Origin: a virus
Lineage: Duplodnaviria; Caudoviricetes
Length of the DNA stretch: 64,000 bases
Reading direction: 5' to 3' (one strand)
Virus record (IMG/VR): IMGVR_UViG_3300031673_000001
Shown: positions 17,318 to 22,994 of the stretch, piece by piece
Layout of the letters: each line of letters starts with the position of its first letter
Numbering within the stretch: the stretch's first letter is position 1
Made by a program: the position numbers and the translations under genes
Notes under the pieces: model-generated
The model's input: the letters and a program-made list of their open reading frames with translations, nothing else
Database searches by the model: none
Told to the model about the DNA's origin: nothing

Positions 17318-17560
17318 ATGAAAAACCCATGTGACATATGCATTTGTAAGGTAATATGTACTGAAATATGTCCAGAAAAAGAAAACTATCTAACATTAAT
17401 TAAAAATGCTATTATCCAAAATTCTTATTCAAAAAGAGGAATTCGAATACCAAAAAATGATAATTTTAGAAAATATCTTGAAATGCAACAACAACATTTC
17501 AAAGATACAGCGAAAATCAATGTGAGAAATTATAAGAAGAGGGGAGGAATGATTTCATGA
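17318..17560 (+). CDS. PCxxC-family small protein
   Basis: NPCDICICKVICTEICP. Confidence 0.65.
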   Translation: MKNPCDICICKVICTEICPEKENYLTLIKNAIIQNSYSKRGIRIPKNDNFRKYLEMQQQHFKDTAKINVRNYKKRGGMIS

Positions 17561-18756
17561 TCCCGTATCAAGGAAAATATGGAAAAGCTTCTGTAATGCT
17601 TAACGAACTAAACGATCAGAATACTATTAGTCAGATATATGAATTTTTAAATCATCCAGCATTTACAAATCCAATTGCTATCATGCCAGATTGTCATTAT
17701 GGAAAGGGTGCTGTAATTGGATTTACAATGGAAATGACTGATATGATTATTCCAAATATAGTCGGGGTCGATATTAATTGTGGTATGCTTTCTCTATTTC
17801 TTGGACCCAATGCTTTAGAAAAATTAACTATCGAACAAATTGATCAGAAAATAAGACAAAAGATTCCCTTATCAAAACATGTCCATCAAGAAGTAACATT
17901 ATCTCATCATATGCTAGACAATTATTTTTGGAAACATGCAAGCTATAATCACAAACATTTTACCTTACAATATAATAAACGATATGGAACCAAATATGAT
18001 CCATTTAAATTTGATATTGATTGGTTTGAAGATAAATGCAAACAAATCAAAATGGATTTTACAAGAGCTTTATCATCTATTGGAACCTTGGGAGGCGGAA
18101 ACCATTTTTTAGAACTGGGTAAATTAGTCAATCGAAAAGAATACCTTTTCACAATCCATTCAGGATCAAGACAATTTGGATTGAAAGTTTGTGATTACTG
18201 GCAACGAAAAGCTGGAAAAGGTCATTTAGCATATTTGACCGGAGATGATATGTTTGGTTATCTTACAGATATGGTATTTACCCAAATATATGCACAAACA
18301 AATAGAGAAGCAATGGCAACGATCATTGAACGTATTTTTGATATTCAATCTTATAAGACGATTGAAACATGCCATAACTTTATAAGTATTCAAGATTTTA
18401 TTATTCGCAAAGGTGCAATAGCTTCTTATAAGGAACATCAGATGATCATTCCATTAAACATGGAAGATGGTTTATTAATATGTGAAGGAAAATCAAATCC
18501 AGAATGGAATTATTCAGCTCCCCACGGAGCAGGAAGAATTAGTTCAAGATCTAGTATTAAAAGAAAAATGAAAGAAAAATCATCCGCTGAAATTGTTCAA
18601 GAACGAATGAAAGAGAAAGGAATATACATATCAGTAGTTCCATTGGATGAAACAAAAGAAGCATATAAAGATCCAAAACTAATTGAAGATACTATTGACC
18701 CAACTGCATCAATTATTGATCGTGTAATGCCTGTGCTCAATATTAAAGCAATTTAA
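17557..18756 (+). CDS. rtcB: RNA 2',3'-cyclic-phosphate/3'-phosphate ligase RtcB
   Basis: MPDCHYGKG, GVDINCG, GTLGGGNHF, HSGSR, HN, RKGA, SAPHGAGR, EAYKD. Confidence 0.95.
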   Translation: MIPYQGKYGKASVMLNELNDQNTISQIYEFLNHPAFTNPIAIMPDCHYGKGAVIGFTMEMTDMIIPNIVGVDINCGMLSLFLGPNALEKLTIEQIDQKIRQKIPLSKHVHQEVTLSHHMLDNYFWKHASYNHKHFTLQYNKRYGTKYDPFKFDIDWFEDKCKQIKMDFTRALSSIGTLGGGNHFLELGKLVNRKEYLFTIHSGSRQFGLKVCDYWQRKAGKGHLAYLTGDDMFGYLTDMVFTQIYAQTNREAMATIIERIFDIQSYKTIETCHNFISIQDFIIRKGAIASYKEHQMIIPLNMEDGLLICEGKSNPEWNYSAPHGAGRISSRSSIKRKMKEKSSAEIVQERMKEKGIYISVVPLDETKEAYKDPKLIEDTIDPTASIIDRVMPVLNIKAI

Positions 18757-19203
18757 TTGAATGTTAAATCGAAAGGAGATAACCATTCATTGGATATAGA
18801 TGGTTTTAAAAAATATATTCATACGGGAAGATCGTATATACCCAAAGTAACTATTAGAAAAAATGGAGTACTCGCTTTCAATAGTGGTGCTGTTCAAAAG
18901 TATGATCTATATGCATATAAATATGCTATACTTTATATCTCGGATGATAGGAATAGAATAGCAGTCAGATTTACAAATAGTGAAAAGGAATCTGGTATTC
19001 TTCAAATACAAAGTAGACCAGGAAATTTTCAAATATCTGCTAGAACCTTTTTTGGTCTATATGATATTGATTGGTCTGAAAATCGTAACTATGATTTCCT
19101 ATGGAATGAAAGAGATAAAACAGCAATTTTAAAAGTAAAGGACTCAAAACCAGAAATTATTAAACAACAAAGAGAGACTCTTCTTGCTATTAAGAACAAA
19201 TAA
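18757..19203 (+). CDS. Hypothetical protein
   Basis: 148 aa, directly after rtcB; start uncertain. Confidence 0.65.
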   Translation: MNVKSKGDNHSLDIDGFKKYIHTGRSYIPKVTIRKNGVLAFNSGAVQKYDLYAYKYAILYISDDRNRIAVRFTNSEKESGILQIQSRPGNFQISARTFFGLYDIDWSENRNYDFLWNERDKTAILKVKDSKPEIIKQQRETLLAIKNK

Positions 19204-19232
19204 CAAATTTGCTTATACAAAGGAGAATAGCT

Positions 19233-19370
19233 ATGAATGATAAAGCTGTAAATCTAATTCATTAGGTTTACACCAATCCACCGTAGAGTTGTAGAGGTCC
19301 CCCCAGTTGTTTTCATTCAAATAATAACTTTAACTTTGAACTGAAAACAAAAAGGGGAATAAAACAATGA
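19233..19370 (+). promoter_or_regulatory. Leader ORF with two in-frame UAG codons and an SD-sequestering hairpin
   Basis: SD AGGAG, ATG 19233; MNDKAVNLIH*(TAG 19263)VYTNPP*(TAG 19284)SCRGPPSCFHSNNNFNFELKTKRGIKQ-TGA 19368-70 overlapping ATG 19367. Confidence 0.65.
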
Positions 19371-19738
19371 CACGAAAAGAATTGAAGAATAAAATAAAAG
19401 AAGAACAAAAATTATTAGCAATCAAAATTAAAAGAGGAAAGTTTCTTAATAAACCTAGTCATAGAGAAAATATGACTGAGGAAGAAAAAGAATTCTATAT
19501 CTCAATTTATGATGGAATATCACATTTCAAAGATTGGAAAGTTGGACAATTAAGTCATGAGTATCGTCATAAACATATCATCTATTGTCAAATGTTTAAC
19601 AATACTCCTTATGAAAAAATTGAACACCCAAGAGTCAGTAATAAACCCACTCCCCAACATCTAAAACTTTATAAAGAACGATGGGAAGTGATACTTTGGG
19701 AAGCACAACGTGATGAAGCTTTACATAATAATACGTAA
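19367..19738 (+). CDS. Conserved phage hypothetical protein upstream of Pth2
   Basis: 123 aa; ..EYRHKHIIYCQM...PYEKIE..; overlaps the Pth2 start. Confidence 0.7.
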   Translation: MTRKELKNKIKEEQKLLAIKIKRGKFLNKPSHRENMTEEEKEFYISIYDGISHFKDWKVGQLSHEYRHKHIIYCQMFNNTPYEKIEHPRVSNKPTPQHLKLYKERWEVILWEAQRDEALHNNT

Positions 19739-20003
19739 AGATTTATCAATTTCACAAAGGGCAGTGCAGGCAGGACATGCTGTAGCGGAGTTTTGTCTGC
19801 GCGGTCCTATCTCGAGTTGGTCTAATGGAACTCTAATCTACTTGGGGGTTAGAAACTTAAATCAACTTGAAAAATTAATGTATCAACTTAATAATGAAAA
19901 TATTAGATATATCGAATTTCGTGAACCTGACTTATATAATCAAGTAACAGCAATAGCAACTGATCAACACTGTGAAATTTTTGAAAGGATAAGATTATTA
20001 TGA
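19710..20003 (+). CDS. Peptidyl-tRNA hydrolase type 2 (Pth2)-like
   Basis: KLYIIIRKDL....RAVQAGHA..EF.......W....LI.L..........F.EPDL..QVTAIA. Confidence 0.8.
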   Translation: MMKLYIIIRKDLSISQRAVQAGHAVAEFCLRGPISSWSNGTLIYLGVRNLNQLEKLMYQLNNENIRYIEFREPDLYNQVTAIATDQHCEIFERIRLL

Positions 20004-20278
20004 TTAAACTTGGAGAAAAAAGAATCAATCCTAACAATATAATTAAATATTATCCAGAACTAGAAAACTCTATTAAATTTGAATTAGTTAATGGCAAATC
20101 TGAAAGTATCTTTTTTAGACATCAGCAAGAACGAGATGAAATGTTAAAAATGCTAGATGATTATCTGGTATTTTTTGACAACGGAATACTGAAGGGAATA
20201 CGAGATCAAAATTTGCCATCATTTATTATTAATGATACAGACAAAGGATACGGTCCAGGCGGAATACCAATGCAATAA
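20000..20278 (+). CDS. Hypothetical protein
   Basis: Coupled by an ATGA overlap to Pth2; ends 8 nt before tRNA(CUA). Confidence 0.65.
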   Translation: MIKLGEKRINPNNIIKYYPELENSIKFELVNGKSESIFFRHQQERDEMLKMLDDYLVFFDNGILKGIRDQNLPSFIINDTDKGYGPGGIPMQ

Positions 20279-20286
20279 AATTTAGT

Positions 20287-20364
20287 GGTCCAGTAGCTCC
20301 AGTGGTTAGAGCAGGAAACTCTAAATTTCCGTTTGCGAGGGTTCGAATCCCTCCTGGACCACCA
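20287..20364 (+). tRNA. Amber suppressor tRNA (anticodon CUA)
   Basis: GGTCCAG/CTGGACC acceptor; GCTC/GAGC D stem; GGAAA-CT CTA AA-TTTCC; GAGGG-TTCGAAT-CCCTC; A73-CCA. Fully canonical fold. Confidence 0.92.
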
Positions 20365-20385
20365 AAGTAAAAGAAAGGATATAGA

Positions 20386-20592
20386 ATGCAAACAATAAAG
20401 TGTATTAGCGATTATTCTATAGAAGCAGAGGGGACAATAAAATTTGGAACAATTTTAACTGAAATGCCTGAATCTGACACGGGATTTGCTCAATATAGAA
20501 ATGAGAAAGGAGAAATATTCTATTTCGATGCTGAAGAAATTATGTTTTCTGATGAATTCTCGCAATCATTTAGATTAATTTCAAATGAATAA
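20386..20592 (+). CDS. Hypothetical protein
   Basis: SD AAGGA. Confidence 0.6.
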   Translation: MQTIKCISDYSIEAEGTIKFGTILTEMPESDTGFAQYRNEKGEIFYFDAEEIMFSDEFSQSFRLISNE

Positions 20593-20619
20593 TCATGTGT
20601 CAGTATCGAAAGGATAACA

Positions 20620-20865
20620 ATGATAACTCAAGTGATTGGAAAAGGAACAACAATATTAGATCAACAAGAATTTGATGAAATTCCAACATTAATTGCTAAT
20701 GAACTTCCAAATGCTGATATGTATCCTACTATATTACAATTTAAAATGATTGGCATGGATGGAAATTGGCTCTTATTTGATATTATTCATGTAAACGGAA
20801 AGGATGAAATTCAACAAGGTATTAATATATTTGCTACCAAAATTCAAGTTGAAACAGATGATTAG
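20620..20865 (+). CDS. Hypothetical protein
   Basis: SD AAGGA. Confidence 0.6.
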   Translation: MITQVIGKGTTILDQQEFDEIPTLIANELPNADMYPTILQFKMIGMDGNWLLFDIIHVNGKDEIQQGINIFATKIQVETDD

Positions 20866-20882
20866 AAAGGATAAAAAAAATA

Positions 20883-21074
20883 ATGTCAGCAACTGTTAAA
20901 CAGGATGAATCTAAATTAGTTTTCTGTTCATTCTGTTCTAAAAGCAATCAAATGATATATATTTATTGTGGTGAAACCGCTTCAATTTGTGACGAATGTT
21001 TGAATATAGTAAATCAGATAAAGATTATGCGTGACAAGAATGTTATCAAATTTATTGGAAAAATCCCAGAATGA
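20883..21074 (+). CDS. Stand-alone ClpX C4-type zinc-finger protein
   Basis: CSFCSKS...IYCGETASICDECL. Confidence 0.75.
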   Translation: MSATVKQDESKLVFCSFCSKSNQMIYIYCGETASICDECLNIVNQIKIMRDKNVIKFIGKIPE

Positions 21075-21151
21075 TCCTGTAGTCCAAATAGGCATAAGGA
21101 TATGAGACTTTCAATCTCAACACGAGGGTTCGAGTCCCTCCAGGATCACCA
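21073..21151 (+). tRNA. tRNA-Glu(UUC)
   Basis: TGAGA-CT TTC AA-TCTCA; CCA. Confidence 0.92.
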
Positions 21152-21172
21152 ACTTTAAGAAAGGATAAAATC

Positions 21173-21439
21173 ATGCCATTTTTTGTTTTAAGACTTATTC
21201 TTGTTCTTGGATCTATAGTTGGAGGAGTTTTTGGATTTAAAAAATTAACTGAAATTGCTGAAAAAAAATACTTCAATAATGGAAGCTGTAAGAAATGCGG
21301 TGGGCACTTTAAAATAATTGAAGGGGATGTTGGTAATGATCCAAAAGGATACAAATGCGATGTCTGTGATAATTGTGTTTGGATTTCTTATGGTTCAGAT
21401 ATAGGATATAAATACACACCAAGCAAACATTCTCAATAA
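21173..21439 (+). CDS. N-terminal TM plus Zn-ribbon hypothetical protein
   Basis: CKKCGGHF...GYKCDVCD. Confidence 0.65.
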   Translation: MPFFVLRLILVLGSIVGGVFGFKKLTEIAEKKYFNNGSCKKCGGHFKIIEGDVGNDPKGYKCDVCDNCVWISYGSDIGYKYTPSKHSQ

Positions 21440-21461
21440 CAATTTGGTTTGTAGTCCAGAT

Positions 21462-21536
21462 CCTGACCAGTGAAGGACGACGTTTCCAAGGGTGAAATTA
21501 ATCGAAACAGGTCGGGTTGGTCCCCTTCAATGTCGT
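21462..21536 (+). ncRNA. Unassigned structured RNA candidate C (possible pseudoknots)
   Basis: CCTGACC/GGTCGGG and GTTTC/GAAAC stems, with loop pairings TGAAGG/CCTTCA and ACGAC/GTCGT. Confidence 0.45.
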
Positions 21537-21620
21537 GATAAAGTAACCCAAAAACATACTATACGTATAAGGAAAAATTATATAATGATTAAAATAAAAA
21601 ATCGACAATAGGAGAAAATT

Positions 21621-22994
21621 ATGTTCATCCCCAACAACATAAATCTTCTATATATAGAAGATGATGAGGAAAATGCAAATCTTATTCTGTCATTTTTAAA
21701 ATTATCTGAATATACAAAATTTAATACAACTCATAAAAGTACATTAGAACAAGGTTTAGACTATATTACAGATAACTGTATTTCTACTTGTAATAACACT
21801 TGTAAAACTCAAAATATTGAAAACTGTGGAACAGATGTTATTTTATTAGATCTAGTTTTACAAAATAGTCGAGGAGTTGATACATATAAATCAGTTTTAG
21901 AAAAATGCCCCTGTATTCCAATTGTTATCATATCTGGATATGAACAAATGGCATATGAATGTGTTAAACTAGGAGCTCAAGACTATTTAGTAAAACCCCA
22001 TATTAATCCAGGTTTAATTATCAGATCATTGGTATATGCAATTGAAAGAAATAATCTAGAAAACTCAAAAATACAAGCTGAAAAGAAATTTAGAGAAGTT
22101 ATTTATGCAACTCCAATTGGTTTTCATAATTATGAACTAAAAGAAGAAGATCTAATATTTATAGGTTATAATCCAGCAGCAGATCGAATACTAAAAATTG
22201 ATCATAAACAATTATTAGGAAAAACAATTGATCAAGCATTTCCCTCTCTAACTAAAATGAAAATTCCTGAAAAATATAAAATAGTTGCAAAAACAGGCAA
22301 ACCATGGGAATCACAAATTTTAGAATACGAAGACCATAATATTAAAAAAGCTTATTTTAAAATACATGCATTTAGAACATACCCTGGTTCTATAACCTCT
22401 TCATTTGAGGATATTACAGAGCAAATAATAGCAACAGAAAAACTAGAATATAGTGAAAAAAGATTTAGAAACCTAGTTGAAATAACAGGTGCAGGAATAT
22501 ATGAAATAGATCTCACTAATGGAAAATTTACTTATGTAAATCATGTTATGTGTAAACAAACTGGATATACTAAAGAAGAACTTTTTGAAATTGGACCTTC
22601 TGGACTTTTAACTCAAAAAAGCTATCTTGACTGGGTTGATAGATGGGAAAGATTTACTGATCCAGAATATATTAATGGAGGAGCTTATGATGGTCCATTT
22701 CAATATGAAGCTATTGCAAAAGATGGTTCTCATCTTTGGTCATTAGTTATAGCAGAATTTGTAATGGATAAAAATAAAAATATAACCAAAGCAAATGTTG
22801 TTGCTATTGATATAACGAAACAAAAATTAATAGAATCTCAATTAAAGAAAAAAGAAGATATTATATTCAATCAATTAGAAGATAAAATACATCAATGGAG
22901 GGATGAAATAACCGAAAGATCTTCAGTTGAATTTCAAAAATTAAAAGACATGGACAATAAAATAATATCCATTAGTAATCAAATTGTGGAGTAA
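21621..22994 (+). CDS. Receiver (REC)-PAS-PAS protein with no kinase or output domain
   Basis: YIEDD, LLDL (phosphoacceptor Asp), IISG, AQDYLVKP; two PAS repeats (IGYNPAADRIL; TYVNHVMCKQTGYTKEEL). Confidence 0.85.
   Translation: MFIPNNINLLYIEDDEENANLILSFLKLSEYTKFNTTHKSTLEQGLDYITDNCISTCNNTCKTQNIENCGTDVILLDLVLQNSRGVDTYKSVLEKCPCIPIVIISGYEQMAYECVKLGAQDYLVKPHINPGLIIRSLVYAIERNNLENSKIQAEKKFREVIYATPIGFHNYELKEEDLIFIGYNPAADRILKIDHKQLLGKTIDQAFPSLTKMKIPEKYKIVAKTGKPWESQILEYEDHNIKKAYFKIHAFRTYPGSITSSFEDITEQIIATEKLEYSEKRFRNLVEITGAGIYEIDLTNGKFTYVNHVMCKQTGYTKEELFEIGPSGLLTQKSYLDWVDRWERFTDPEYINGGAYDGPFQYEAIAKDGSHLWSLVIAEFVMDKNKNITKANVVAIDITKQKLIESQLKKKEDIIFNQLEDKIHQWRDEITERSSVEFQKLKDMDNKIISISNQIVE

Follow-up and report, generated by a model that had tools for sequence, protein, structure and literature searches.

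The closest described relatives of the element considered here are the RAPP-like arrest peptides, among them ApdA, ApdP, ApcA, SecM (RAG/P), CruR and the RAPP/RGPP upstream open reading frames (ORFs) of Streptomyces. They share a short upstream ORF that ends near R-(A/G/D)-P-P and a downstream ribosome-binding site within a stem-loop, to be opened by a stalled ribosome. Their known gate is secretion or insertion force, or else a small molecule, and a signal or membrane segment is usually present. Of the published core motifs RGPP is the strongest (PMC12992588, PMC10951233; see also PMC7897499). RAPP, RGPP and RDPP have all been published as ribosome-arrest motifs (PMC12992588, PMC10951233). 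In published assays RGPP and RAPP were the most robust, EF-P-refractory arrest cores and RDPP was partly permissive, with Gly, Asp and Ala being the residues at motif position 2 that are permissive for RAPP-like arrest (PMC12992588). A leader of related anatomy was found in a viral DNA stretch of 64,000 nucleotides from IMG/VR record IMGVR_UViG_3300031673_000001, referred to throughout as the window. Here, two in-frame amber (UAG) codons precede an RGPP motif upstream of a conserved phage gene, ORF123, and the cassette that follows ends in a tRNA of the amber suppressor type, with the anticodon CUA. The element is probably a translational attenuator of the arrest-peptide type for which amber readthrough is the gate, and we class it as arrest-peptide attenuation of translation with an input of a new kind.

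The original prediction, which came from a reading of the window without database searches, had described a double-UAG leader with its own Shine-Dalgarno (SD) sequence and ATG, running into RGPP. All of these parts were found where it had placed them, and the same anatomy recurs in 69 distinct homologous loci of metagenomic huge phages, far more often than chance would give. The features of the leader and of the cassette, in window coordinates, are as follows.

19220-19225, + strand: leader SD sequence AAGGAG, 7 nt 5' of the leader ATG, as read from the sequence
19233-19304, + strand: conserved leader core MNDKAVNLIH-UAG-VYTNPP-UAG-SCRGPP, 24 codons, with its ATG at 19233
19263-19265, + strand: UAG no. 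1 in the leader frame, after ten codons
19284-19286, + strand: UAG no. 2 in the leader frame, with Pro-Pro before it and a purine after it; six codons separate the two UAGs
19293-19304, + strand: Arg-Gly-Pro-Pro codons, a RAPP-like arrest motif, of which UCCCC (19298-19302) doubles as the anti-SD
19305-19370, + strand: non-conserved tail of the leader frame, 21 codons after RGPP, with a UGA (19368-19370) that overlaps the ORF123 ATG at 19367
19307-19350, + strand: AT-rich inner hairpin joining anti-SD and SD in the minimum free energy (MFE) fold, different in sequence in every lineage
19354-19358, + strand: SD of ORF123, GGGGA, paired with the leader UCCCC in the fold
19367-19738, + strand: ORF123, a conserved phage protein with 114 homologues and the first regulated gene in the proposed model
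19713-20003, + strand: protein of 96 amino acids with a predicted Pth2 fold, its start overlapping the end of ORF123 by 26 nt
20000-20278, + strand: ORF92, the variable third gene, with homologues in about six distinct loci, all close relatives
20287-20364, + strand: tRNA of the amber suppressor type, anticodon CUA (ARAGORN; Rfam tRNA, 57 bits), 8 nt after the ORF92 stop

The evidence that carries this reading is comparative. ORF123 homologues with flanking DNA were collected at 84 loci from metagenome and IMG/VR contigs, and after deduplication these gave 69 distinct upstream regions. In all 69, one or more in-frame UAGs are followed by [R/K][G/D/A]PP in the leader frame, 49-90 nt 5' of the ORF123 start. 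Two UAGs are present in 59 of these leaders, three in four of them and one in three, and three contigs end too soon for a count. The penultimate UAG lies 3-8 codons before the last (63 of 69 loci) and the last UAG lies 1-4 codons before the Arg codon (66 scored loci), with both the UAG-UAG and the UAG-Arg spacing differing among lineages by whole codons only. Over the 45 nt that precede Arg, the leader frames of the 69 loci hold 133 TAG, 0 TAA and 0 TGA; the other two frames of the same 45 nt hold 43 TAA, 45 TGA and 39 TAG. At none of the 69 loci does a sense codon, TAA or TGA stand in place of a leader UAG, as the original prediction of conserved in-frame amber codons had required, and its second expectation, a conserved (R/G)GP-type motif, is likewise borne out.

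The motif begins with Arg in 66 loci and with Lys in three, and the next residue is Gly (47 loci), Asp (18) or Ala (4), the changes falling at the middle base of the codon. The Arg codons are AGA, CGT, CGG, CGC and CGA, a Ser frequently found before Arg uses TCA, TCT, TCG or AGT, and the first Pro is CCT in 55 of the 69 loci. Translation of the leader across its UAGs is indicated by this pattern of sequence, because the leader frame is TAG-only, the spacings change by whole codons, Arg and Ser switch between codon families, and the position after Arg is restricted to Gly, Asp and Ala.

Leader lengths range from 12 to 72 codons, and an SD-like purine run with an ATG opens most of the 66 leaders whose start could be located. 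A typical example can be written as ...CC.G.EC.I.W.DD-UAG-(I/L/V)A(R/Q)PP-UAG-x(C/S/H)R(G/D)PP. Past the Pro-Pro codons the frame ends within 0-30 codons, with one outlier of 121, and in most loci only 0-13 non-conserved codons follow. The ATGA overlap between the leader stop and ORF123, taken in the original prediction as a classic coupling, is real in the window and is not general: depending on the locus, the leader stands in register 0, 1 or 2 to the ORF123 ATG, and the leader end is variable.

Most lineages have a long-form leader, in which an N-terminal part of 45-55 residues precedes the first UAG (e.g., L001:4753-4893, L007, L009, L018 and L040). The long-form leaders are acidic, and their N-terminal part contains a conserved M(V/I)RI(N/S)KEEIKGI sequence and a Cys-rich CC.G.EC.I.W.DD block. 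The peptide released from a long-form leader by a stop at the first UAG may have a function of its own. In the window lineage the N-terminal part is shortened to 10 residues, and no signal, membrane or hydrophobic segment was seen by eye in the 24-codon leader. A search of IMG/VR with the exact 42-nt leader pattern gave no match. The near-identical copies L003-L005 have a leader that is 100% identical, and hence uninformative for comparison. A strain variant from sediment (run X10) agrees with the window to 19303 and then has a different 5' arm of the hairpin; the matching 3' arm was not recovered.

The same codons that encode the arrest motif also serve as one strand of an RNA structure. The MFE of 19215-19375 is -38.9 kcal/mol (z = -4.56), and 0 of 200 shuffles were as stable. 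In this fold, UCCCC (19298-19302) pairs with GGGGA (19354-19358) around the hairpin at 19307-19350, and the sequestration of the ORF123 SD that had been drawn from the window alone recurs across the set: the Gly-Pro-Pro codons are paired to the ORF123 SD in 68 of 69 MFE folds, and the pairing is kept through sequence turnover in an inner stem whose sequence varies by lineage. Anti-SD/SD duplexes have a mean energy of -10.9 kcal/mol with their own partner, -9.2 with a foreign partner and -5.3 when shuffled, and the inner hairpins average -6.9 kcal/mol with their own arms, -3.7 when chimeric and -2.6 when shuffled. Compensatory changes are also seen. A CCT codon for the first Pro puts CCUCC opposite GGAGG, and a GGGG SD occurs only in the window and in L059, both of which have CCC CCC as their Pro codons (CCCCC/GGGG). 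A C precedes the AUG in 18 of 22 loci with CGN Arg codons versus 8 of 47 with AGA or AAA (Fisher p = 3e-7, not phylogeny-corrected), and this combination lets CGUGG pair with CCAUG. As a background for these phages, CCTCC lies 40-98 nt upstream of 7 of 346 SD-bearing genes (2%).

Other aspects of the fold are less general. The 10-bp stem that holds the first UAG was correctly seen in the window and is not conserved, with a median z of -0.55 over 65 loci and no such stem in the closest relative, L006. RNAalifold gave no base pairs for 49 attenuators aligned with MAFFT, since their variable hairpins fail to align, and per-sequence folds with own-versus-cross controls were used instead. The hairpin is not an intrinsic terminator, because A-rich sequence and not a U tract comes after it, and promoter and terminator scans near the leader found nothing beyond shuffle level.

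The pairing of the R-G-P-P codons with the SD and the AUG, and their covariation with both, could also be accounted for by an element that acts as RNA only. The small ORF would then end at the first UAG, the second UAG would be a back-up stop, and 'RGPP' would be kept as the anti-SD and anti-AUG strand of a constitutive or protein-controlled hairpin; the predominance of CCT at the first Pro is what pairing with GGAGG would lead one to expect. This explanation is regarded as improbable. A back-up stop could be any stop, yet the frame before Arg contains TAG and nothing else among the stop codons, and the spacings shift by whole codons only. In addition, Arg persists whether its codon is AGA or CGN, of which CGN alone pairs with the AUG, position 2 stays limited to Gly, Asp and Ala despite changes at the middle base, and the Ser before Arg swaps between TCN and AGT. 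The leader also matches no Rfam family: a search of 18000-22000 with E up to 1 returned only two tRNAs and chance-level rows, with no leader family and no T-box or other tRNA-sensing RNA.

The third line of evidence for a readthrough-gated attenuator is the tRNA itself. The tRNA(CUA) is of class I, with a canonical cloverleaf and an encoded CCA. Its family has 56 distinct homologues with the anticodon loop CUCUAAA, in which N73 is A or U and the 1-72 pair is G-C or U-A, and no amino acid is assignable from these. ARAGORN labels the gene 'Pyl', a label that reflects the anticodon only. tRNA-Pyl has a short D loop, a 3-nt variable loop and no GG/TΨC elbow, and the canonical GG D-loop and TTCGAAT T-loop of the window tRNA do not fit this architecture. 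Among the distinct leader-bearing loci with at least 1.7 kb of downstream DNA, 36 of 37 have a tRNA(CUA) on the same strand, 549-1552 nt past the ORF123 ATG, which is the co-occurrence that had been anticipated from the window. The order ORF123, Pth2-like gene, tRNA(CUA) is kept in the same proportion (36 of 37). The operon first proposed, with a further ORF before the tRNA, thus stands for these three genes and not for the third ORF, which is variable or absent, so that the tRNA directly follows the Pth2-like gene in many loci. In a relative with a 223-kb contig, a transfer-messenger RNA (tmRNA) gene with the tag ADDYYTDFAKAA lies at L001:6548-6933, about 600 nt 3' of the tRNA(CUA), and places ribosome-rescue functions beside the suppressor cassette.

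Five loci have no motif: three contigs that end within 70 nt of the gene, a variant (L089) and a decayed copy (L044). The last of these (2000-2260 of contig Ga0129299_1002407) is a natural counter-example, in which the leader has decayed where the Pth2-like gene and the tRNA(CUA) are both lost. The ORF123 homologue is kept and has no SD, a TAA stands in place of the first UAG, and the frame to the PP codons is broken. L089 (2370-2503 of IMGVR_UViG_3300035390_000014) reads MKKMYWKGNWA-UAG-VNRPP-UAA, with one UAG and no RGPP, and its Pro and stop codons form the anti-SD of a long hairpin; this leader may stall at Pro-Pro-stop rather than at RxPP.

The Pro-Pro-stop arrangement deserves comment for the typical leaders as well. 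Pro-Pro stands directly before the last UAG in 40 of 66 scored loci, and the base after this UAG is A or G in 64 of the 66. From work on amber suppression and on C-terminal proline, Pro-Pro before and a purine after a UAG should favour a suppressor over RF1. C-terminal Pro-Pro also slows release-factor-mediated release, and the same arrangement could therefore belong to a sensor of RF1 (termination) capacity for which the tRNA is not needed: scarcity of RF1 would lengthen the pause at Pro-Pro-UAG, and the paused ribosome would open the hairpin, a logic resembling the autoregulation of prfB. Such a sensor is considered unlikely. With the UAG in the A site, a ribosome opens roughly 5-9 nt of mRNA, and the anti-SD begins 3-6 codons past the last UAG, mostly outside that stretch. 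A sensor of this kind would also leave unexplained that the frame is open past the last UAG and conserved there at the level of amino acids, as well as the arrest motif and the near-obligate tRNA(CUA) in cis.

A suppressor tRNA might simply mean that these phages read TAG as sense throughout, like the known recoded phages that carry suppressor tRNAs (genetic code 15), and that the leader is an ordinary small gene of a recoded genome. Recoding was checked in the 64-kb window and in the full IMG/VR records of two relatives (223 and 248 kb). Standard-code stop-to-stop ORF cover is already about 0.9-0.99 per 10 kb, falling to 0.6-0.8 in tRNA-rich stretches, and reading TAG as sense gained no more cover than a control in which TGA was read as sense. 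TAG is the stop of 10-15% of long ORFs, and same-frame ORF pairs split by TAG only are as rare as TGA-split pairs. Such pairs were considered as further readthrough targets and rejected: the seven junctions inspected resemble ordinary gene boundaries, most of them with an SD and an ATG shortly after the TAG. One of the TAG-split pairs, at 146083 of G001 (L091-L102), consists of adjacent ORFs of 253 and 258 residues that are tandem paralogues with 39% identity, the second having its own ATG four codons after the TAG. The window and the two relatives are not TAG-recoded, in agreement with what the original prediction had said of the rest of the window, and, with leader UAGs that are never sense codons at any of the 69 loci, general recoding is a most improbable explanation of the leader. 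The window and the two relative contigs each have exactly one copy of the leader motif; given this single copy and the lack of recoding, the leader is the sole conserved in-frame suppressor target in sight. Genes that end in TAG show no enrichment of back-up stops: the next TAA or TGA lies at a median distance of 17 codons, versus 10-11 after genes that end in TAA or TGA (Mann-Whitney p = 0.17), and adaptation to readthrough is thus not in evidence.

Taken as an attenuator gated by amber readthrough, the element would work as follows. Translation of the leader would begin at its own SD and ATG. As long as no suppressor is active, ribosomes would stop at the first UAG, or else at the second, and the RNA downstream would remain folded, with the Gly-Pro-Pro codons (CCUCC-like; UCCCC in the window) paired to the ORF123 SD and, in many lineages, the Arg-Gly codons paired to the ORF123 AUG as well. 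No initiation would then occur on ORF123 or on the overlapping Pth2-like gene. If the tRNA(CUA) from the end of the cassette, presumably charged, beats RF1 at both UAGs, the ribosome would reach R-(G/D/A)-P-P and should stall there, on top of the anti-SD and the 5' hairpin arm. This would free the SD and AUG, and ORF123 and the Pth2-like protein would be made, which gives the switch an ON polarity. With two UAGs in series, output would scale roughly as the square of the readthrough efficiency and so create a threshold, and the element would report how active the suppressor tRNA of its own cassette is in comparison with RF1. In its core, the original prediction is supported by the comparative evidence.

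Several points weigh against this mechanism. All of its support is computational, with arrest, readthrough and the expression and aminoacylation of the tRNA being predictions. The R-G-P-P codons are constrained as RNA too, as anti-SD and anti-AUG, and their conservation is partly not due to selection on the peptide. One locus, L034, has an intact leader and no tRNA(CUA) within 2.8 kb on a contig of 3.4 kb. The use of TAG to end 10-15% of long ORFs means that a strong suppressor would carry a cost without visible compensation by back-up stops. The genome of the window phage itself was examined within the 64-kb window only, and the association statistics are uncorrected for shared ancestry.

The products that the leader is proposed to control have been characterized through homology and structure prediction. 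ORF123 has 114 homologues, all of them metagenomic and 0 of them with a precomputed Pfam domain, and no convincing Pfam or PHROG match was found for it. An AlphaFold2 model with a predicted local distance difference test score (pLDDT) of 92.6 gave no convincing match in the PDB (Foldseek), AFDB clusters or the Atlas, and a wide VIA-align search reached a best Z of 5.6, to generic helices. The 96-residue protein is modelled with the Pth2 alpha/beta fold. It matches Pfam PTH2 (PF01981) at 23.1 bits against a cut-off of 23 (E = 9e-5), and its alignment profile matches peptidyl-tRNA hydrolases in the PDB, weakly, at E of 1e-3 to 6e-2. The AlphaFold2 model (pLDDT 93.6) retrieved Pth2-family chains in all of the top 13 Foldseek rows, including 2zv3 (TM 0.75), 3erj, 1wn2, 1xty and 1q7s, with TM of 0.66-0.76 and a probability of 1.00. 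It falls about 20 residues short of the length of Pth2, and its family has R8, D10, Q19, H22, E71-P72-D73 and T79 as invariant residues, which could not be matched to the catalytic ones of Pth2. Its gene lies 3' of ORF123 in nearly all loci that reach far enough, and the copy in the window contains no in-frame TAG.

As to what these proteins do, a guess is that they deal with a product or a cost of suppression, or that they act back on it. Possible tasks are the recycling of peptidyl- or aminoacyl-tRNA(CUA), the rescue of readthrough ribosomes and feedback on suppression. A more speculative extension, which we put forward as a tentative proposal and would not expect to hold in full, is that the cassette is a self-contained feedback controller of nonsense suppression in a standard-code phage. 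The Pth2-fold protein and ORF123 would act on the aminoacyl or peptidyl ester of the suppressor, or on ribosomes at the UAG or RGPP codons. Suppressor activity would thereby turn on either its own antagonist, making a homeostat, or its helper, making a bistable commitment switch, and phage suppressor tRNAs would have in this leader the dedicated target that has long been missing.

The surroundings of the cassette are those of a large virus. The window has a G+C content of 31% and encodes a phage-type DNA polymerase and an RtcB ligase (17557-18756). Its closest DNA matches, via rtcB only, are huge uncultured phages and large Clostridioides phages, and identical copies of the window occur in metagenome contigs of up to about 238 kb. 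We take the window for a piece of a huge phage, sampled in sediment or soil metagenomes. A scan of genome collections for a host matched only three contigs of metagenome-assembled genomes, with inconsistent taxonomy, and these are probably mis-binned phage DNA. ARAGORN called 25 tRNA genes at 8.1-30.1 kb of the window (8142-30125) and none for tRNA-Trp, Tyr or Val. Many of the 25 were called at 78-90 nt with the anticodon oddly placed at 37-38, which suggests extra nucleotides or expanded arms. At 21621-22994, 1.3 kb 3' of the cassette, lies a gene for a protein of 457 amino acids with a response-regulator receiver and a PAS domain, an unusual signalling protein for a phage. In an aquatic RNA-Seq library (one sample, two runs), identical short contigs span 19939-20478 of the window, from the final part of the Pth2-like gene through ORF92 and the tRNA(CUA) into the beginning of the following ORF. 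These contigs are no evidence of transcription, because they are assembled, come without strand or end information, and the library may contain DNA.

The place of this element among known systems can now be considered. Suppressor tRNAs are common in large standard-code phages. Their targets have been a puzzle and are not identified, according to the genome papers (PMC5852040, PMC9022506), and the leader offers a conserved single-copy candidate target in cis to such a tRNA. A literature search found no publication on a natural stop-codon-gated arrest leader or on its link to phage suppressor tRNAs. If the proposed mechanism is true, the Pth2-fold enzyme and the ORF123 family would be tied to the physiology of nonsense suppression, and the RAPP-type arrest family would gain a new sensing modality.

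Compared with the RAPP-like peptides, the gate here consists of one to three in-frame UAGs matched to a suppressor tRNA of the same cassette, and the anti-SD lies inside the arrest codons. Passing stop codons as the gate to an arrest motif would be a regulatory input without a described precedent among natural leaders. In the attenuation of ermC, cat and cmlA, a ribosome stalled on the leader likewise melts an SD-sequestering hairpin, with an antibiotic in the exit tunnel as the inducer, whereas here the inducer would be the decoding of stop codons by a tRNA. The control of prfB (RF2) is similar in that an early in-frame stop, a UGA, reports on a release factor versus alternative decoding. There, however, the alternative is a +1 frameshift and the sensed factor is the gene's own product; here there is no frameshift, suppression would be by a dedicated tRNA, and the controlled products would be ORF123 and the Pth2-fold protein. 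The code 15 phages (crAss-like and Lak) share a phage tRNA(CUA) and expression that depends on the reading of UAG. They have in-frame TAG in many late genes, in contrast to the phages studied here, in which TAG is an ordinary stop everywhere examined but in this leader.

The nearest functional parallel is synthetic. Engineered amber leader switches, in which a TAG in the trp or tna leader ties expression to an orthogonal suppressor (PMC6412442), also make downstream expression depend on passage of a suppressor tRNA past a leader UAG, and act transcriptionally via Rho or an attenuator. If the mechanism holds, the leader would be a compact natural reporter part for suppressor-tRNA activity, comparable to these switches; unlike them, it is natural and conserved, and its point of action would be the initiation of translation, by way of an arrest motif and a sequestered SD.

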